Of a stretch of DNA of 64,000 nt, positions 47,079 through 60,763 are shown in pieces. The stretch's first letter is position 1. Each line of letters begins with the position of its first letter. The stretch is from a virus, in the IMG/VR virus record IMGVR_UViG_3300048014_000353, positions 74,551 to 138,550 of that record. One strand, 5' to 3'. A model generated the notes under the pieces. The model had not been told where the DNA came from and did not search any database. It saw nothing but the letters and a program-made list of their open reading frames with translations. Made by a program: the position numbers and the translations under genes.

Positions 47079-47456
47079 ATGATCCTCACCTGCCTGCGTC
47101 ACCGGACTGCGTCGTGCGACCCCGCGAACAGCTCCATCTGGGAGATGGACGTCCGACGCGGCATTCATCCCCCGCGGCCGATCATCATCGCGCGCATCGT
47201 GCTCGGCAGCGCACTTCCCATCGACGTCGAGATCCCCATCTGCACCTCGCGCGTTCCGCGCAAGCTCTCGTGGCCGATCCAGTTCGTCGCGAACGGAACC
47301 TGGCGCATCGCGCTCGCCCGCTACGGCCATGACCTCCGTGAGCTCACCGAGCCCATGGAGTTCGATGATCGCCTTCCCATCGGGAGCCTCGATCTCCTTT
47401 GCTGCCCGCCCGACGTGCAGAACGATCTGCTGGGCATCGACGAGCTGCCGCTATGA
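47079..47456 (+). CDS. Hypothetical protein
   Basis: ATGA-coupled to gmk. Confidence 0.45.
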   Translation: MILTCLRHRTASCDPANSSIWEMDVRRGIHPPRPIIIARIVLGSALPIDVEIPICTSRVPRKLSWPIQFVANGTWRIALARYGHDLRELTEPMEFDDRLPIGSLDLLCCPPDVQNDLLGIDELPL

Positions 47457-48085
47457 CCGACCCGCTCCTCGTGTGCCTCGTGGGCCCGAGTGGGGTAGGG
47501 AAGAGCACGCTCGCGCAGCGCCTTCTCGCGGAGCGACCGGACTTCACCCGAAAGATCTCCCACACGTCCCGCAAGCCGCGCGGCTCCGAAGTGCGCGACG
47601 TGGACTACCACTTCGTGACGCGCGAGGCGTTCCTGGCGGACGTGCACGCGGGTCACTTTCTCGAGCACTCGAACGTCTACGACAACCTGTACGGAACGAG
47701 CCGCTCGGAAGTCGCGCGCGCCGTCGGCACGGGGAAGCGCGGCCTCGTGCTCGAGCTCGACGCCTATGGCGCGTCGCAGATGCGAGCGAGCGCGCCCGCG
47801 AGCACGGTCGTGGTCTTCATCCTCCCTCCATCGCTGGAGACGCTCGGGCTTCGCCTCCGGCAGCGAGCCACCGAGGACACGGCGACGATCGAGCGGCGCA
47901 CCGCGGACGCCCGCGCCGAGATCGTCTTGGTCGATTCCGTCGCGGACTACGTGATCGTCAACGACGACGCCGCGAGAGCCGGCAAGACGCTCTCGGCCCT
48001 CGTGGAGGCCGAGCTCCTCAAACGCACGAGCCCTGCCTGGGGCGACATGGCCGCACGTCTTCTGAGGAACGGAGCCATCGCTTGA
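47453..48085 (+). CDS. gmk: Guanylate kinase
   Basis: GPSGVGKST; SHTSRKPRGSEV..VDYHFV; FLEH..VY.N.YGT; VFILPPS. Confidence 0.9.
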   Translation: MTDPLLVCLVGPSGVGKSTLAQRLLAERPDFTRKISHTSRKPRGSEVRDVDYHFVTREAFLADVHAGHFLEHSNVYDNLYGTSRSEVARAVGTGKRGLVLELDAYGASQMRASAPASTVVVFILPPSLETLGLRLRQRATEDTATIERRTADARAEIVLVDSVADYVIVNDDAARAGKTLSALVEAELLKRTSPAWGDMAARLLRNGAIA

Positions 48086-53270: not shown

Positions 53271-53354
53271 GGGGTGCGATGGCGGGTGGCTCCCGCAGGC
53301 CGGCTGTAACCCGGTCGCCAAGGCTAGTGGTTCGAATCCACCGACACCCCACCA
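53271..53354 (+). tRNA. tRNA-Tyr(GTA)
   Basis: GCCGG-CTGTAAC-CCGGT anticodon arm, long variable arm, encoded CCA. Confidence 0.85.
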
Positions 53355-53397
53355 GCAAAGAGGACCAGGTGAAACAGGGACCAAAGCACGAAAGCGA

Positions 53398-53469
53398 GGG
53401 ACGTTAGCACCAAGGTGGTGCGGCCGGCTTTTACCCGGCACGAGGCGTGTTCGATTCACGTGCGTCCCA
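53398..53469 (+). tRNA. tRNA-Lys(TTT)
   Basis: GCCGG-CTTTTAC-CCGGC; acceptor GGGACGT/GCGTCCC. Confidence 0.85.
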
Positions 53470-53479
53470 CGACTCCAAC

Positions 53480-53551
53480 GGGAGGTTGGCATCCAGGTGA
53501 CGCAGCGCTCTCTTACAGCGACAGAGCCGGGTTCGAGTCCCGGGCCTCCCA
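53480..53551 (+). tRNA. tRNA-Lys(CTT)
   Basis: CGCT-CTCTTAC-AGCG; canonical T arm. Confidence 0.8.
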
Positions 53552-53564
53552 CGAAGTGAAGTGC

Positions 53565-53635
53565 ACCGGTCTCGTCCAAAGGCAGGACAGCAGATTCTGG
53601 ATCTGAGAATTGGGGTTCGAGTCCCTAGACCGGTA
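53565..53635 (+). tRNA. tRNA-Gln(CTG)
   Basis: CAGA-TTCTGGA-TCTG; D stem GTCC/GGAC. Confidence 0.85.
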
Positions 53636-53782
53636 CTGCGGGCAACGACTCCACGTTGACAAGTTGACCCCCGTTCGTTGACAACCTGAACGACCCCCGA
53701 CGGCGCGCGCTCCCCCGAGTTCGCGCGGCAGTCCCGGTCGACGTTCATTCGGGCCGGTAGCCATCGTGGCGCGGCCCTTCAT

Positions 53783-53856
53783 TGCGACGAAGCTCAATGG
53801 CGAGCAGCAGACTGTTAGCCTGTCGGAACAGGGTTCGATTCCCTGCGTCGCAGCCA
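53783..53856 (+). tRNA. tRNA-Asn(GTT)
   Basis: Loop CTGTTAG; G73 + CCA. Confidence 0.85.
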
Positions 53857-53857
53857 T

Positions 53858-53929
53858 GCCGGTTGGGCCCGATGGTAGGGCACCCCTTTCGTAAAGGGGT
53901 CGCAACGTGTTCGATTCACGTAACCGGCT
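53858..53929 (+). tRNA. tRNA-Thr(CGT)
   Basis: CCCCT-TTCGTAA-AGGGG. Confidence 0.85.
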
Positions 53930-53985
53930 CTGGGAGTAGGCCGCTCGCGTGGGTGACTCCTCGCGTGCGCGCTGACGCCCGCCAT

Positions 53986-54058
53986 GCTCCCATCGACTTC
54001 TGGTGAGGTCGCGCGCCTCTCACGCGCGCCAGGCACGGTTCGAATCAGGCGGGGAGTG
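53986..54058 (+). tRNA. tRNA-Glu(CTC), T stem degenerate
   Basis: CGCGC-CTCTCAC-GCGCG; T stem poorly paired. Confidence 0.55.
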
Positions 54059-54064
54059 CAACGC

Positions 54065-54137
54065 GCCCGCATAGCGCATCTGGTGAGGCCACCCGCCCTT
54101 CAAGCGGGCCAGACGAGTTCGATCCTCGTTGCGGGTA
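54065..54137 (+). tRNA. tRNA-Glu(TTC), C33
   Basis: CCCGC-CCTTCAA-GCGGG. Confidence 0.8.
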
Positions 54138-54144
54138 CTATTTT

Positions 54145-54219
54145 GCCTGCTGAGCTAGTGCGGTCATTCAGCGCTCGTTTGAAGAACGAGAGAACCCCGT
54201 CCGACTCGGGGAGCAGGCA
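54145..54219 (+). tRNA. tRNA-Phe(GAA), C55
   Basis: CTCGT-TTGAAGA-ACGAG; T loop TCCGACT. Confidence 0.8.
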
Positions 54220-54223
54220 CTAT

Positions 54224-54295
54224 CGGAGTGGTGGGCGATGGACGCCCGCTTGGTTCGGGACCAAGACCCCGCAGGTTCGATTCCTGTCGCTCCGA
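54224..54295 (+). tRNA. tRNA-Pro(CGG)
   Basis: CTTGG-TTCGGGA-CCAAG; C1-G72, A73. Confidence 0.85.
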
Positions 54296-54300
54296 CTCAT

Positions 54301-54373
54301 GGTGCTCGAAGCCATCTGGTGATGGTGATCGGCTGTGAACCGATCCAGGCGGGTTCGATCCCCGTCGGGCACC
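54301..54373 (+). tRNA. tRNA-His(GTG)
   Basis: ATCGG-CTGTGAA-CCGAT; G-1:C73. Confidence 0.85.
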
Positions 54374-54396
54374 CTACTCCTTTCGAGGAGACGAAT

Positions 54397-54467
54397 GCTT
54401 CGTGACGCGACAGGGTCGCGGCTCGGTTGTCTCCCGAGTGAGACCGGTTCGAGTCCGGTACGAAGCG
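54397..54467 (+). tRNA. tRNA-Asp(GTC)
   Basis: CTCGG-TTGTCTC-CCGAG; G73. Confidence 0.8.
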
Positions 54468-54498
54468 CTGGCTGGCGAGCGGGTCTCGCAAGCTTCTT

Positions 54499-54566
54499 AG
54501 GTCTGAGCGTGGGACGCGACGTGGTCTCCAAAACCACGAAAGAAGGTTCGAGTCCTTCCAGATCTG
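54499..54566 (+). tRNA. tRNA-Trp(CCA), short D arm
   Basis: GTGGT-CTCCAAA-ACCAC; G73. Confidence 0.75.
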
Positions 54567-54631
54567 CCGGGCTCTCGCGGCGCTCCGTGGGACTCGTCTC
54601 TAGGTTGACACGCCTATGGGCCCATCACTTC

Positions 54632-54702
54632 GGGCTGTTCGTCCAGCGGGAGGACACCGCGTCGGCAATGCGGGAACGCCGGTTCGAATCCGGCACGGTC
54701 CA
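54632..54702 (+). tRNA. tRNA-Ala(GGC), C33
   Basis: CCGCG-TCGGCAA-TGCGG; G3-U70. Confidence 0.85.
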
Positions 54703-54711
54703 CGATTCTAC

Positions 54712-54780
54712 GGGCTTGTCTGAGAGGTCAGGTCTCTCGTTCGCATCGAGCGATACGGGGTGCGACTCCCCGCAGGTCCA
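54712..54780 (+). tRNA. tRNA-Ala(CGC), G55
   Basis: CTCG-TTCGCAT-CGAG; G3-U70; T loop TGCGACT. Confidence 0.75.
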
Positions 54781-54784
54781 CCTT

Positions 54785-54855
54785 GGGGGTGTAGCTCAGC
54801 GGGAGAGCACTCGGTTTGCACCCGAGGGACGAGAGTTCGATTCTCTCCACTTCCA
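54785..54855 (+). tRNA. tRNA-Ala(TGC)
   Basis: CTCGG-TTTGCAC-CCGAG; G3-U70. Confidence 0.9.
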
Positions 54856-54933
54856 CACGGTCATCGAGGAGACCGTTAGCCTACCACGCAAGTGGTCACC
54901 CGTAGCACGGGTTTGGTAAGGGGCCCTCGCCAT

Positions 54934-55004
54934 GCCGCGTCTCCTAGTGGGCGACATCCCTCGGTACGGGAAGTCGGACGGTGCGATTCCGTCACGCGGC
55001 TCCA
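54934..55004 (+). tRNA. tRNA-Thr(GGT), C33, G55
   Basis: TCCC-TCGGTAC-GGGA; encoded CCA. Confidence 0.75.
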
Positions 55005-55005
55005 C

Positions 55006-55073
55006 GCCGGCGGCTGTGGAGCAGAGAGGGATTTGTAGCTCATCTCGAACCGGTCCGACTCCGGTGGCCGGCT
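55006..55073 (+). tRNA. Degenerate tRNA-Thr(TGT)
   Basis: Acceptor and T arm (ACCGG-TCCGACT-CCGGT) present; anticodon stem mismatched, D arm reduced. Confidence 0.4.
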
Positions 55074-55082
55074 CTGATTCTT

Positions 55083-55151
55083 GCGGGTGAGCCCAAGGTG
55101 GGACGTTCGCCTTCCAAGCGAAACGACCGAGTTCGAATCTCGGCATCCGCT
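55083..55151 (+). tRNA. tRNA-Gly(TCC)
   Basis: TTCGC-CTTCCAA-GCGAA; U73. Confidence 0.85.
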
Positions 55152-55358
55152 CTACTCGATGGCGTGCCGCGCCGAGTGCGCCAGTTTCAGTCGTTCGAGT
55201 TGATCGTCGCCGACGGGGTTCCCGCTGGATAGGCCGTTCGACATGAGCGGCAGCGGCTCTTTGCAGACACCGCAAGCCGTTGGTGCGCGGCGGAGGATGC
55301 CGATCGTCTTGATCTCTTCACCGCGAGCGCAGCCATCGCACACGAGCGTCCATCTCAT
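55152..55358 (-). CDS. Small zinc-ribbon protein antisense within the tRNA array
   Basis: MRWTLVCDGC...TACGVC; two CxxC motifs. Confidence 0.55.
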   Translation of the reverse strand: MRWTLVCDGCARGEEIKTIGILRRAPTACGVCKEPLPLMSNGLSSGNPVGDDQLERLKLAHSARHAIE

Positions 55359-55375
55359 CGTCGAAACGGTACCAT

Positions 55376-55449
55376 GCGGGTGCAGCTCGAAGGTCGAGCA
55401 GATCGTCGCCAACGATCAGGCGCGGGTTCAATTCCAGCCATCCGCTCCA
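55376..55449 (+). tRNA. tRNA-Gly(GCC), C33
   Basis: GATCG-TCGCCAA-CGATC; U73 + CCA. Confidence 0.8.
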
Positions 55450-55450
55450 C

Positions 55451-55522
55451 GTCGTGGACTGCGAGCGCAGATCGCCGGCTGCAACCCGGCGCGCGAGGGC
55501 GCGACTCCCTCCCACGACTCCA
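55451..55522 (+). tRNA. tRNA-Cys(GCA), C54/G55
   Basis: GCCGG-CTGCAAC-CCGGC; U73 + CCA; T loop CGCGACT. Confidence 0.75.
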
Positions 55523-55523
55523 T

Positions 55524-55557
55524 ATCGAGATCCCGATGCCCTCATCGAGATCCCGAT
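55524..55557. repeat. Tandem 14-bp direct repeat ATCGAGATCCCGAT, each an ATCG-N6-CGAT palindrome
   Basis: Exact copies at 55524-55537 and 55544-55557. Confidence 0.8.
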
Positions 55558-55561
55558 AGAC

Positions 55562-55636
55562 GCGCTCGTCCTGGCGGATCCAGGCTCTCGCCTTCTAAGC
55601 GAGTTCGCGACGGTCCGACTCCGTCCGGGCGCTCCA
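55562..55636 (+). tRNA. tRNA-Arg(TCT), C55
   Basis: CTCGC-CTTCTAA-GCGAG; encoded CCA. Confidence 0.8.
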
Positions 55637-55801
55637 TCCGAGGACCTTCGCTGGCAGCGTGCGTGAGCCCAAAGGAGCGTGACACGGCCGCTCACACGTA
55701 CGCCGGGCTGTCCAAAGAGTCGGGACACGCGGTGCCTCCCCACGGGCACCGCCCCCGTGAGTAGGCGCGGCCGGGCGAAGGGCCGAACGCCGAAGTCAAT
55801 T

Positions 55802-55872
55802 CTCCTCGTCCGGGCGGACCCCGGGCGCTCCCTCCGAAGGAGCAATCCACCGTTCGACTCGGTGCGAGGAGA
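55802..55872 (+). tRNA. tRNA-Arg(CCG)
   Basis: GCTCC-CTCCGAA-GGAGC. Confidence 0.8.
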
Positions 55873-55891
55873 CCGCCGCGCGAGCGGCCAT

Positions 55892-55962
55892 GCCCCCGTC
55901 CTGGCGGATCCAGGCAGCGGTCTACGAAACCGCTCGTCGGAGTTCGACTCTCCGCGGGGGCT
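55892..55962 (+). tRNA. tRNA-Arg(ACG)
   Basis: GCGGT-CTACGAA-ACCGC. Confidence 0.85.
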
Positions 55963-55963
55963 C

Positions 55964-56036
55964 TGTAGGGAGGGTGGTCTTAGTCCCAACCGAGGCTCAT
56001 AACCTCGGCTTCGCCGGTGCAACACGGCCCCTGCAA
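55964..56036 (+). tRNA. tRNA-Met(CAT), T arm atypical
   Basis: CGAGG-CTCATAA-CCTCG; T loop TGCAACA. Confidence 0.65.
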
Positions 56037-56037
56037 C

Positions 56038-56105
56038 CGCAGCACGCCTCGGAGGCGCGCGAGCCCCATAAGCTCGCCGACCCGGTTCGACTCCGGGTGC
56101 TGCGA
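56038..56105 (+). tRNA. tRNA(CAT), Ile2 or Met, C33, short D arm
   Basis: CGAGC-CCCATAA-GCTCG. Confidence 0.7.
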
Positions 56106-56111
56106 CGACGT

Positions 56112-56187
56112 GCCGGCCTCGCGCTCTAGTGAGCACCGCCGCCTTACAAGCGGATGAAGGCGAGTGCGATCCTCGCGGCCGGTACCA
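56112..56187 (+). tRNA. tRNA-Val(TAC), G55
   Basis: CCGC-CTTACAA-GCGG; A73 + CCA. Confidence 0.8.
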
Positions 56188-56194
56188 AATCTTT

Positions 56195-56267
56195 GCGGAG
56201 CTCGTCCTCTGGCGAGGGCACCACGTCGACAACGTGGTTCAGGCGAGTTCGATCCTCGCGCTCCGCA
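56195..56267 (+). tRNA. tRNA-Val(GAC), C33
   Basis: CCACG-TCGACAA-CGTGG. Confidence 0.85.
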
Positions 56268-56279
56268 CCGCTTTTTCAC

Positions 56280-56351
56280 CCGGCCGGACTGGCGGGTCGC
56301 CTTGCGCTCTCTGATACGGAGCGCGGCCGCGTTCGAGTCGCGGCGGCCGGA
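56280..56351 (+). tRNA. tRNA-Ile(GAT)
   Basis: GCTCT-CTGATAC-GGAGC. Confidence 0.8.
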
Positions 56352-56423
56352 CCCATTCACGCCAAGAAACGACTCCACGGAGACGATCCCCATGCTGCTC
56401 AGGCGAAGGAAACGGTGACGACC

Positions 56424-56966
56424 ATGCTGGCCAACCCCTGTCTCGTGCTCACGCCGCGAATGATCCCCCACGAAGCCGTCTCGCTCGAGCGCGCGATCTG
56501 CCTGGCGTACCTGCGCAAGGTGGACGTGCTCGAAGTCTACGAGGCCGTCGTGCATTCGCCGTCGCTCGAGATGCAGGTGCCAGCCGTCGTCCGCCTGACG
56601 AGCAAGGCCATGCCGCATGAGATGCGGGATGTGAAGTTCTCCCGCCCGCGCGTCTACCAGCGCGACGGGCACCGGTGCCAGTACTGCGGCGTGAAGAAGC
56701 GCGCGTCCGAGCTCAACTACGACCACGTGATCCCTCGTTCCAAGGGCGGCCCGACGAACTGGACGAACATCGTGACGAGCTGCCTCGTCTGCAACGGGCG
56801 TAAGGGCGGCCGGACACCGAAAGAGGCGGGGATGCGTCTCCTTCGAAAGCCACGCGCGCCGGAGAGTCTCCCGCTCGTCGGCCTGGTCGCGCTCCCGAGC
56901 GACGTTCCCGAGCTCTGGCTTCCGTACCTCGAAGGTCATTCATCCCGCGTGGCGATGACCGCGTGA
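56424..56966 (+). CDS. McrA-like HNH endonuclease inside the tRNA array
   Basis: AAGGA RBS; RD...CQYCG...DHVIPRSKGG...W.NIV..C..CN..KG.RTP.EAGM.L. Confidence 0.9.
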   Translation: MLANPCLVLTPRMIPHEAVSLERAICLAYLRKVDVLEVYEAVVHSPSLEMQVPAVVRLTSKAMPHEMRDVKFSRPRVYQRDGHRCQYCGVKKRASELNYDHVIPRSKGGPTNWTNIVTSCLVCNGRKGGRTPKEAGMRLLRKPRAPESLPLVGLVALPSDVPELWLPYLEGHSSRVAMTA

Positions 56967-57081
56967 AGCTTGCCTGCCGCTACCCGCCGGAAGAGCGCGC
57001 GTGGACCATGCCGCGCGGCCACCGCAGGTCAATCAGCCATTCCCGGCGCATGGCGCGGAACACCGGGGCTCTCATCTCTTT

Positions 57082-57163
57082 GGAGGGTGAAGTGGCATGG
57101 GGCCACGCTGGCTTCGAAACCCAGGGACCTTCACGGGTAGGCGTTCGATTCGTCCACCCTCCG
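57082..57163 (+). tRNA. tRNA-Ser(CGA)
   Basis: Loop TTCGAAA, long variable arm, G73. Confidence 0.8.
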
Positions 57164-57261
57164 CTACCTTCGTCGTGCCGCAGCATGGCCGGGATGAGAC
57201 GCCCCGGCGGGACAAACCGCGTTCGAACGAACGATGTGAGGTCCGCACGACGCGGAGACTT

Positions 57262-57344
57262 GGAAGACGAACCCGCCAGGGGCGGGGACCGATTGCTAAT
57301 CGGCACGTGGGGCAACCCATCCTGTTCGAGTCAGGCGTCTTCCG
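57262..57344 (+). tRNA. tRNA-Ser(GCT)
   Basis: CCGA-TTGCTAA-TCGG; variable arm GTGGG-GCAA-CCCAT. Confidence 0.85.
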
Positions 57345-57345
57345 C

Positions 57346-57414
57346 TCCGGTACCCCGTGGACGGGAACGTGGCCTTTGAAGCCGCGGACGAGAGTTCGAA
57401 CCTCTCTACCGGTA
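57346..57414 (+). tRNA. tRNA-Gln(TTG)
   Basis: GTGGC-CTTTGAA-GCCGC. Confidence 0.75.
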
Positions 57415-57415
57415 C

Positions 57416-57499
57416 CCGATCGTGGTGGAACAGCAGACACGGCGCGCTGAGAACGCGTGCCCCCCTAGGGGCGTGAGGGTGCGATTCCCTCCGATCGGA
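57416..57499 (+). tRNA. tRNA-Leu(GAG), G55
   Basis: GCGCG-CTGAGAA-CGCGT; long variable arm. Confidence 0.8.
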
Positions 57500-57509
57500 C
57501 GACTCTCTT

Positions 57510-57594
57510 GCTCGGGTGTCGGAAAAGGTAGACGAGCGACGTTCAGACCGTCGTGCCCCTCGTGGGCGTGCTGGTTCGAGTCCAGCCCTGAGCA
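57510..57594 (+). tRNA. tRNA-Leu(CAG)
   Basis: CGACG-TTCAGAC-CGTCG; long variable arm. Confidence 0.9.
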
Positions 57595-57609
57595 CTTCTC
57601 ACTTCTCTG

Positions 57610-57694
57610 GCCGCGGTGGTTGGAACGGCAGACACGCGCAGTTCAAACCTGCGTGCCTTCGGGCGTGCGGGTTCAAGTCCCGCCCGCGGCACCA
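57610..57694 (+). tRNA. tRNA-Leu(CAA)
   Basis: CGCAG-TTCAAAC-CTGCG; encoded CCA. Confidence 0.9.
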
Positions 57695-57970: not shown

Positions 57971-58180
57971 GGGGGCCGGGTCGCTCGTCGGCAAAGCGTT
58001 CGCAGTGGCCTCGGCCTCCGCCTCCTCGCGCGCCTCGAGCTCGAAGTGCGCGATCGCCGGGCCGAGGAGACCGCGCGCCGCCTCCGCCGTGTCCGTGACG
58101 CCGCCGGTGACCATCTGCGCGTAGAGGTGTCGGAGCTGGCCGAGATGGAAGGCCGTCGAGTGGCGATGGCCGTCGATCAT
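57965..58180 (-). CDS. Hypothetical protein downstream of hicB
   Basis: Overlap-coupled to hicB. Confidence 0.45.
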   Translation of the reverse strand: MIDGHRHSTAFHLGQLRHLYAQMVTGGVTDTAEAARGLLGPAIAHFELEAREEAEAEATANALPTSDPAPK

Positions 58181-58767
58181 TTCCGGGTATCTAGTGAGGT
58201 CAAGGCAAAGGAGTCGGTCTTGGTATCCCGTCCGCCCTCCGACTTACGATTGCCGTCACGGATGACTTTGCCTGCTCGCGTGACATTCATGTCGAGCATG
58301 TCCAAGTCCGTCATTCGCGTCGGCGCCAACGCCTTTGCGGGCCGCGGCAACGGGCGAGTTCGTCCGGACTTTTTCGGCTTTGCGTCGAGAATCATGCCCG
58401 ACTGGAGGTCCGTCAAAAAGGCACGTACCGTCGTGCGGCTGAGGCCCTCGGCGATCCACGTCACGAAGAGTTGATTCAGCGAGACCCCTTCCGCCGACGA
58501 GACCGCCGACGCCCGCGCGTGCAGCGTCTTGGGCATGCGGAGCGCAAACTTGCCGGAGTAGTCCACCGCATCGATGTCGGACTCGGGCACGGGACGCCCG
58601 TGGGCCTTGAGCGATTCGACCATGAGCTTGCCGGCGATCTCGATCTCTTTGACCGCCTCCTCCATCGTGTCGCCGTGCGCCGCGAGCGTGTCGAACGCAG
58701 GCGCACGCGCGATGAAGACTTCGTCCAGGGCACTCCAGCTGACGAATACGCGATAGGGGAACATCAC
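58177..58767 (-). CDS. hicB: HicB-family antitoxin with RHH domain and C-terminal extension
   Basis: Y...V.WS..D..FIA..P.......HGDT.EEA..E; YSGKF.LRMP..LH......A..EGVSLNQ. Confidence 0.88.
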   Translation of the reverse strand: MMFPYRVFVSWSALDEVFIARAPAFDTLAAHGDTMEEAVKEIEIAGKLMVESLKAHGRPVPESDIDAVDYSGKFALRMPKTLHARASAVSSAEGVSLNQLFVTWIAEGLSRTTVRAFLTDLQSGMILDAKPKKSGRTRPLPRPAKALAPTRMTDLDMLDMNVTRAGKVIRDGNRKSEGGRDTKTDSFALTSLDTRK

Positions 58768-59726: not shown

Positions 59727-60047
59727 ATGACGTCTGGCAAGCCGAAGCCGAAGTGCGACCGTTGCGGCGGCACGCTCGTGAAAGGTGAGGTTTACAACGG
59801 CGGCGGTGGCCGTCGCCTCTGCTGCGCCTGTGGGACGAACGAGAACAGCCCGCTCGTGAGGTATGTCAAAAGCCGTCTCGCGTACCGCGCGTTCGCTCTC
59901 TGGTGGGATGAGGTGGAGCCCTGTCCGACGGGGGCGGCTTCAGCCAAGGAAGCGTGGACGATGCTCCCGCCCTCCCATCAGCGCGCGTGGAGGAGCGTCG
60001 TGCGCTTGGTATGGAAGGAATGTCGCGCTTCCCACCCGGAGGCCTGA
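59727..60047 (+). CDS. Zinc-finger protein
   Basis: CDRCG...CCACG. Confidence 0.5.
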   Translation: MTSGKPKPKCDRCGGTLVKGEVYNGGGGRRLCCACGTNENSPLVRYVKSRLAYRAFALWWDEVEPCPTGAASAKEAWTMLPPSHQRAWRSVVRLVWKECRASHPEA

Positions 60048-60055
60048 GGACCGCC

Positions 60056-60763
60056 ATGCTGTACATCCTCCACACCTCCGACACGCACGGGTGGGACATC
60101 ACGCAGATCCCGCTCGACGCCCAAAACAGCGAGCACGGCGTACGCATCGACGTCGTCGTGCACTCGGGCGACTTCCAGCCGACCAAGGGCCGCCGCGTGG
60201 GCGAGCGCATCCGGCCCGTCGCCGAGGTCCGCTACCAGGATCGGTGGATGCGAAAGAACGCGCCGAAGATCGCGGCGTGGCTCGACGGACGCCCGTTCGT
60301 CTTCGTGCCGGGCAACCACGACTTCTACAACCCGACCGCCGACCTCGCGCTCGCCGGCGCGAACGTCGTGTGGCTTCGGAACGGAAGTGCATCGGTCGCG
60401 GGGATCCGTTTCTCCGGCTACCGATTCATCCCGTACATCGAAGGGGAATGGTGCGGCGAGCTCCCGGAGAGCGACATCGCCAAGCACGCCAAGGAGATCG
60501 AGGACTGCGACGTCCTCGTCACCCACGCGCCTCCGCACGGCGTGCTCGACCGGGACAGCGGTCGGCACTTCGGGAGCTCGGCGCTCGCGAACGAGTACCT
60601 CTACAACCGCGAGGGACGACGTCTGCCGAAGGTGTGGCTCTGCGGCCACGTCCATCCGCACGGGGGCGAGCAGGCGCAACTCACTTTCGGGGGGATCCTG
60701 GTCGTGAACTCGGCCAAGACATGGCAGGTGATCGGGATCAAGCCTTCGGAAGTGGCACCTTGA
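60056..60763 (+). CDS. Metallophosphoesterase
   Basis: SDTHG, HSGDF, PGNHD, THAPP, CGHVH. Confidence 0.88.
   Translation: MLYILHTSDTHGWDITQIPLDAQNSEHGVRIDVVVHSGDFQPTKGRRVGERIRPVAEVRYQDRWMRKNAPKIAAWLDGRPFVFVPGNHDFYNPTADLALAGANVVWLRNGSASVAGIRFSGYRFIPYIEGEWCGELPESDIAKHAKEIEDCDVLVTHAPPHGVLDRDSGRHFGSSALANEYLYNREGRRLPKVWLCGHVHPHGGEQAQLTFGGILVVNSAKTWQVIGIKPSEVAP

Follow-up and report, generated by a model that had tools for sequence, protein, structure and literature searches.

Uridine 33 (U33), the U-turn nucleotide of the anticodon loop, is treated as invariant in elongator transfer RNAs (tRNAs). Eukaryotic initiators are the only tRNAs for which a review lists cytidine at this position (C33), and the cytoplasmic initiator tRNA-Met is cited there as an exceptional case (PMC5041475). 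Changed anticodon loops are known from phage tRNAs in relation to host nucleases: a T5 tRNA-Lys variant is insensitive to the AriB nuclease of PARIS (Burman et al. 2024, PMC11464382), and anticodon-loop mutations in the tRNAs of cluster C1 mycobacteriophages have been proposed to serve nuclease evasion (van den Berg et al. 2023, PMC10264068). Neither of these two papers mentions position 33, and our full-text literature searches turned up no publication that describes C33 in the tRNAs of phages. Here we describe a stretch of 64,000 nucleotides (the window), bases 74551-138550 of the 138,550-bp IMG/VR virus record IMGVR_UViG_3300048014_000353, in which a co-oriented array of about 35 tRNA genes with all 20 amino-acid specificities (53271..57694, + strand; ARAGORN, Rfam) includes six genes with C33.

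The nuclease-insensitive phage tRNAs are likewise phage-encoded, stand in large arrays and have loops one or a few bases off those of host isoacceptors, but the changed base in the window is the U-turn nucleotide itself, and the resistance of the window's tRNAs is hypothetical. The phage copies duplicate tRNAs that the host holds, as far as the host can be judged from capsid relatives: host-type metagenome-assembled genomes (MAGs) have Gly-GCC, Thr-GGU and Val-GAC. The eukaryotic initiator tRNA-Met is a functional tRNA with C33, and its CAU anticodon, like several discussed below, has a purine at position 35 and a pyrimidine at position 36 (R35-Y36); in contrast, five of the six window C33 genes are elongators (Ala, Val, Thr, Gly, Glu), and the CAU gene lacks the three G-C pairs of the initiator anticodon stem. 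In their dense, co-oriented genes and nearly complete isoacceptor sets, the arrays of cluster C1 mycobacteriophages and of four loci with a shared gene order (G045, L337, L361 and G081:C911) are like that of the window. From comparisons at the sequence level, we put at about an even chance the reading that the six genes would be working tRNAs whose C33 is lineage-specific and structurally tolerated, and not a sign of decay.

The six C33 genes of the array

ARAGORN and direct reading bear out the six C33 genes that the original prediction had listed, namely Glu-UUC, Ala-GGC, Thr-GGU, Gly-GCC, a second CAU and Val-GAC, which amount to 17% of the array. All of them fold as cloverleaves with 7-nt anticodon loops, both in ARAGORN drawings and in minimum free energy (MFE) folds. 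Three exceed the gathering threshold of the Rfam tRNA model RF00005 (29 bits): tRNA-Glu(UUC) at 54065..54138 (+; loop CCTTCAA, C33 at 54098; 35.5 bits), tRNA-Ala(GGC) at 54632..54703 (+; loop TCGGCAA, C33 at 54663, G3:U70; 52.4 bits) and tRNA-Gly(GCC) at 55376..55449 (+; loop TCGCCAA, C33 at 55407; 43.7 bits). The tRNA-Thr(GGU) gene at 54934..55004 (+; loop TCGGTAC, C33 at 54962, T-loop TGCGATT, encoded CCA) is called by ARAGORN at -ps80 only, and its MFE fold is a cloverleaf with z -2.4. ARAGORN also calls tRNA-Val(GAC) at 56195..56269 (+; loop TCGACAA, C33 at 56227, A73; fold z -4.4) and the second CAU tRNA-like gene at 56032..56106 (+; loop CCCATAA, C33 at 56066; fold z -3.0). The last is the weakest of the six, with a poor acceptor and D arm; the two CAU genes (55964-56106) overlap by 7 nt as called, and for the second, the limits 56039-56105 give a better fold, in which the acceptor has 5 bp and the T stem 6 bp. 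Its anticodon stem is GCGAGC/GCUCGC, without three consecutive G-C pairs of the initiator type.

By the identity rules of E. coli tRNA, the acceptor identity elements agree with the anticodons in Ala-GGC, Gly-GCC, Val-GAC and Thr-GGU. The Gly-GCC acceptor has G1-C72, C2-G71, G3-C70, U73 and an encoded CCA, and that of Thr-GGU has G1-C72 and C2-G71. A one-base shift of the anticodon loop was rejected, as residue 37 would then be a pyrimidine and the anticodon would disagree with the identity elements of the acceptor stem. Compared with the U33 genes around them in the array, the C33 genes show no greater degeneracy.

U33 stands in Tyr, Asn, Phe, His, Asp, Cys, Ser-GCU, Ile-GAU and Leu-GAG. The tRNA-Cys(GCA) gene at 55453..55527 (+; loop CTGCAAC, T-loop CGCGACT) is missed at ARAGORN defaults and was found by hand reading, and a Tymo_tRNA-like match covers 55454-55533. 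When the tRNAs with G34 are divided by codon box, C33 is found in four of five from family (four-fold) boxes and in none of eight from split boxes (Fisher one-sided p=0.007, on a partition chosen post hoc), so the count given in the original prediction was right. The sole family-box G34 tRNA with U33 is tRNA-Leu(GAG) at 57416..57500 (+; loop CTGAGAA, U33 at 57448; ARAGORN). The remaining two C33 genes, Glu-UUC and CAU, belong to split boxes. Ala-GGC, Gly-GCC, Val-GAC and Thr-GGU read GCC, GGC, GUC and ACC, which together with their U-ending partners make up about 17% of phage codons.

C33 in other phage arrays and in host-type tRNAs

Two IMG/VR scans for adjacent T-arms, with two arrays added via an exonuclease homologue, gave 2,404 non-redundant tRNAs, and we analyzed the 1,985 that lie in 111 other arrays of at least 8 genes. 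C33 occurs in 69 of them (3.5%) and A33 in 3; thus, the replacement of U33 is nearly always C. It is more frequent in arrays of at least 58% GC (7.5%) than below (2.2%), is absent from 73 of the 111 arrays, and reaches six genes in only 2. The anticodon class matters most clearly: C33 stands in 6.9% of R35-Y36 anticodons and in 2.2-2.4% of each other class, with 35 R35-Y36 cases observed against 17.1 expected by within-array permutation (p<5e-5). This excess is found within G34 tRNAs (16 against 5.2 expected), persists inside family boxes and inside split boxes, and recurs in three GC strata, among arrays that have just one C33 gene, in each scan alone and without known related arrays. The commonest carriers are Ala-CGC, Val-GAC, Thr-GGU, Thr-CGU, Ile-GAU, Ala-GGC and Val-UAC; the split-box Ile-GAU is the most frequent (8 of 70), and Lys-UUU, Glu, His and Tyr tRNAs also carry C33 in other phages.

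The codon box does not have such an effect. Pooled over the arrays, C33 is found in 9 of 128 family-box and 12 of 549 split-box G34 tRNAs (p=0.009), a comparison confounded by GC; the excess is lost within GC strata (p about 0.25 in each) and in the within-array permutation (9 against 6.0 expected, p=0.13). With R35-Y36 held fixed, family and split boxes do not differ (24 observed against 22.7 expected; 9 against 11.2). Since three of the five family-box G34 anticodons in the window are R35-Y36 and seven of the eight split-box ones are not, Ile-GAU being the only split-box G34 anticodon of this type, the family-box concentration would be mostly a by-product of anticodon class. The original prediction had emphasized this concentration and proposed that C33 is tolerated only where misreading of the third base is silent. 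The first point largely dissolves in the larger sample, where C33 is random with respect to codon box, and the second does not hold, given the split-box Glu-UUC and CAU genes, the missing box effect in 111 arrays and the frequency of C33 in Ile-GAU.

The known geometry of the U-turn offers a structural account. U33 makes constant contacts, from N3-H to the phosphate of residue 36 and by stacking on phosphate 35 (Grosjean and Westhof 2016, PMC5041475), and variable ones, from O2' to N7 of a purine 35 and from O2 to C5 of a pyrimidine 36 (PMC5041475). Cytidine shares O2 and O2' with uridine and lacks N3-H, so that only in an R35-Y36 loop can C33 keep two of the three specific contacts. In such loops, C33 would keep 33(O2')...R35(N7) and 33(O2)...Y36(C5) and would lose only the N3-H...phosphate-36 bond, and these extra U-turn contacts may be the reason for the R35-Y36 preference. 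This proposed contact model fits both the R35-Y36 statistics and the near-exclusive use of C. Constraint may also be looser on phage tRNAs than on those of the host, and in a genome of 68% GC the fixation of C33 may be helped by T>C pressure. Either drift, helped by these two factors, or selection imposed by a host enzyme may have fixed C33.

In some lineages C33 is old. It persists in orthologues that are 69-81% identical, namely Thr-CGU, Ile-GAU and Ala-CGC (arrays G004 and L145) and Thr-GGU (L147, L383 and L323), and the two arrays that share three C33 genes, G004 and L145, are 73% identical. This stability over long divergence makes C33 compatible with function.

To compare the window with arrays of like organization, we ranked arrays by anticodon order (longest common subsequence, z against shuffled controls). 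Four stand out: G045 (L122+L123, G045:C1:217500-246500) in a 406-kb IMG/VR record (z 9.1), G081:C911 (L249), a 3.2-kb contig binned in a Sorangium MAG (z 8.6), L337 from a 298-kb viral record (z 6.3) and L361 (z 5.5). They keep an order of about 15-20 genes (Tyr, Lys, Lys, Gln, Asn, Thr, Glu, Glu, Phe, Pro ... Ala, Thr, Gly, Gly, Cys, Arg ... Met, Val, Leu x3), while their tRNAs are at background identity to those of the window (about 65-70%), which makes the common order an ancient one. Since identity between window tRNAs and those of the first sample never exceeds 77%, orthology is read from gene order only. The survey of homologous arrays suggested by the original prediction could be run on these four, and its outcome goes largely against that prediction: U33 is present at all 16 genes comparable to window C33 genes. 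The window's C33 set is thus lineage-specific. The same-order arrays carry C33 in other genes (Ala-CGC, Val-UAC and Leu-UAA).

The tRNAs of the probable host group look different. All 47 tRNAs taken from Polyangiaceae and Sorangium MAGs have U33 and U8, so high GC alone does not erode U33, U8 or the T-loop, these host-type tRNAs being fully canonical in equally GC-rich genomes. The host-type and phage loops are TTGCCAA and TCGCCAA for Gly, TTGGTAA and TCGGTAC for Thr, and TTGACAC and TCGACAA for Val; that is, the phage Gly-GCC loop matches the host-type loop save for position 33, and Thr-GGU and Val-GAC differ at 33 and 38. GC pressure alone was rejected as the cause of C33, since host-type tRNAs of GC-rich genomes are canonical and low-GC phages also have C33.

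We also compared the array with contigs from three independent peat DNA runs of different studies (X12, X13 and X14). No difference appears at any C33 site covered: the X12 contigs have the same letter in Ala-GGC and do not differ in Val-GAC, and the X13 and X14 contigs are identical in Gly-GCC. C33 is therefore not an assembly error. The X12 run represents a variant strain that departs from the array at 24 positions over 4.6 kb; X14 has several of these differences in common. In the anticodon stem of its tRNA-Trp, a G>C change (54523) is paired with C>G (54535) and the base pair is kept, which indicates selection on structure. Random decay, which the original prediction had set aside on the grounds of well-paired stems, indeed does not describe the array: stems and identity elements are intact, the Trp change is compensatory, the replacement is almost always C, and the host-type tRNAs keep U33 throughout. 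Elsewhere in X12, T>C at 54525, near the Trp pair change, would open the loop-closing pair, and G>T at 55836 turns the tRNA-Arg anticodon CCG into CCU, with the same amino acid, in a gene also changed at 55849 and 55863.

Weighing the explanations of C33

Several observations weigh against structural tolerance as we describe it. The R35-Y36 rule fits Ala-GGC, Val-GAC, Thr-GGU and the CAU gene and does not fit Gly-GCC and Glu-UUC; C33 occurs in none of 42 Gly-GCC genes of other arrays, which leaves that of the window without parallel, and Glu-UUC has a pyrimidine at 35 and falls outside the rule. The CAU tRNAs are R35-Y36, but only 3 of 139 carry C33. Within the window the rule is marginal (4 of 11 against 2 of 24, p=0.06). 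One sample served both to notice the rule and to test it, although each half of that sample shows it, and the related arrays in the sample are not fully independent. Rfam gives no match for three of the six C33 genes. Moreover, an X12 contig has T>C at 57448, which is position 33 of Leu-GAG; C33 there, in an R35-R36 anticodon, suits a family-box rule better than the R35-Y36 rule, and this one contig (depth 4.2 of 10.2) is a lead only.

In a counter-defence reading, positive selection for C33 in this lineage would protect the phage's versions of much-used G34 family-box tRNAs from a host enzyme, either an anticodon-loop nuclease or a modification enzyme, whose recognition depends on U33 followed by an unmodified G34. 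We regard this as a tentative possibility, clearly short of an even chance. It takes in the split of four in five against none in eight and the Leu-GAG variant, for which a T>C at that very site has a chance of about 0.01 (6 T>C among about 800 T in 4.6 kb), though the variant comes from a single contig at depth below 5; it would also suit the phage Gly-GCC loop, which departs from the host-type loop at 33 only, and the share of phage codons (about 17%) that the tRNAs concerned read. Precedent exists in the established resistance of T5 tRNA-Lys to PARIS (PMC11464382) and in the broader proposal for mycobacteriophages (PMC10264068), and just downstream of the array lie a HicB-family antitoxin-like gene (58177-58767, -) and a calcineurin-type metallophosphoesterase gene (59954-60763, +). 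Nevertheless, the host nuclease remains hypothetical, with no candidate; the same-order arrays retain U33, codon box is without effect across phages, Glu-UUC and CAU are outside the pattern, and gamma-toxin cuts a C33 stem-loop like the wild type, so that U33C need not block an anticodon nuclease (PMC2275089). A more specific form, which we think rather unlikely, holds that the lineage is exchanging U33 for C33 in all of its family-box G34 tRNAs (four fixed, Leu-GAG polymorphic in a peat strain), driven by a Polyangia anticodon nuclease or modification enzyme for which U33 beside unmodified G34 is the signal; about one-sixth of the phage's codons would then be read by resistant tRNAs that it brings itself, and R35-Y36 would be a separate, general structural law for dispensable U33, visible only in phage tRNAs.

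The same split in the window, and the uncorrected pooled excess in other arrays, could be explained by wobble-relaxed decoders, in which C33 would make the reading of the third base less strict and be tolerated in four-fold boxes alone, where misreading is silent. The larger sample largely refutes this, and we find it improbable: the pooled excess is gone within GC strata and within arrays, no family effect is left once R35-Y36 is fixed, and C33 occurs in Ile-GAU, Lys-UUU, Glu, His and Tyr tRNAs elsewhere and in Glu-UUC and CAU in the window. Just as improbable, to our judgment, is the view that the genes are decaying pseudogenes or tRNA-like decoys with no part in translation. In its favor, U8 and U55 are replaced in many genes of the array, Rfam finds no tRNA match for Val-GAC, Thr-GGU or either CAU gene, and the second CAU gene has its poor acceptor and D arm; yet stems and identity elements are intact, the natural variant has the compensatory Trp change, all 20 specificities are present in a gene order kept across very distant phages, and the C33 genes are no more degenerate than their neighbors. 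Sequencing or assembly error, or a mis-registered anticodon loop, is hardly credible: the record is a single metagenome assembly, but independent runs from different studies give the same letters.

The array, its phage and its probable host

Between Ile-GAU and Ser-CGA the array is split by an HNH endonuclease gene (56424..56966, +; phrog_16726, E 3.5e-31). ARAGORN yields 29 tRNAs at default and 32 (+ strand) at a relaxed setting, and a Thr-UGU-like gene is called at -ps70. The RF00005 model detects about half of the array, and Val-GAC, Thr-GGU and both CAU genes have no Rfam tRNA match even at E<=10. Deviations at other conserved positions are common. Position 8 is not U in 6 of 21 array genes, with A, G or C in Asn, Thr-CGU, Phe, His and Gly-GCC, and position 55 is G or C in the T-loops of 5 of 31; TTCGA is replaced by TGCGA (Ala-CGC, Thr-GGU, Val-UAC, Leu-GAG) or TCCGA (Phe, Arg-UCU). 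Unlike the array, host-type tRNAs have U8 and standard T-loops throughout.

The 9-mer ACGACTCCA occurs five times on the + strand (53469, 53645, 55514, 56369 and 57694), with 0.6 copies expected by chance; all copies lie within or at the end of the array, usually right after a tRNA or tRNA block, and it may be a processing or promoter-associated signal. The spacers at 53637-53782, 54857-54933, 55153-55375, 55637-55801 and 57165-57261 (77-223 nt) have no tRNA call and no Rfam match. In the metatranscriptome run X20, one 155-nt contig is identical to 55112-55266, from the end of Gly-UCC to the start of the 223-nt spacer; it could be DNA carry-over, and the rest of the matches are mostly short mismatched pieces from other organisms, so that beyond this contig the run offers no usable sign of expression. 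In the same-order contig G081:C911, ARAGORN places an amber-reading CUA anticodon (reverse strand, 1303-1371) where the window has Arg tRNAs, and this gene may be a suppressor or a miscall.

The record has a CheckV completeness of 82%, and GC runs from 62 to 72% along the window (about 68% overall). Its genes for the major head protein, tail sheath and baseplate proteins identify it as a myovirus; the window also holds a guanylate kinase gene (47399-48085), and neither Ro60 (TROVE) nor RtcB is present in the record. The closest relatives of the capsid protein among 5.8 billion proteins are 58-62% identical to it and none exceeds this; the named relatives come from a Polyangiaceae MAG and Pendulispora; in species-representative genomes all four matches are in Myxococcota MAGs (Polyangiaceae, Myxococcales and Sorangium). 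The host is probably a member of Polyangia (Myxococcota), a placement drawn solely from these capsid relatives. Nearly identical sequence is present in moss and peat metagenomes of many studies, some of which contain 30-80% of the 31-mers of the array.

Close relatives are missing from the collections searched. IMG/VR searches by exonuclease and by major capsid protein returned no close relative of the phage, none of the 26 records of capsid relatives has a tRNA array, and 80 loci flanking exonuclease homologues contain just 2 tRNAs altogether. Matches to GenBank phages by blastn are of 60-85 nt, at the tRNA level only; a search of viral and metagenome contigs with the Gly-GCC T-arm and Cys-loop pattern gave no homologous array, and a viral scan for the Leu-GAG anticodon arm with U33 or C33 found nothing.

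For phages, these results mean that elongator tRNAs in arrays can carry C33, at 3-15%, that position 33 is still constrained, and that C33 tracks the second and third bases of the anticodon, matching the known U-turn contacts. R35-Y36 is a testable rule for tRNA design and for the annotation of phage tRNAs, which can escape standard covariance models (about half of those in the window array do). Meanwhile, loop changes in phage tRNAs should not be read as counter-defence before structural tolerance has been allowed for, which narrows the nuclease-evasion idea.

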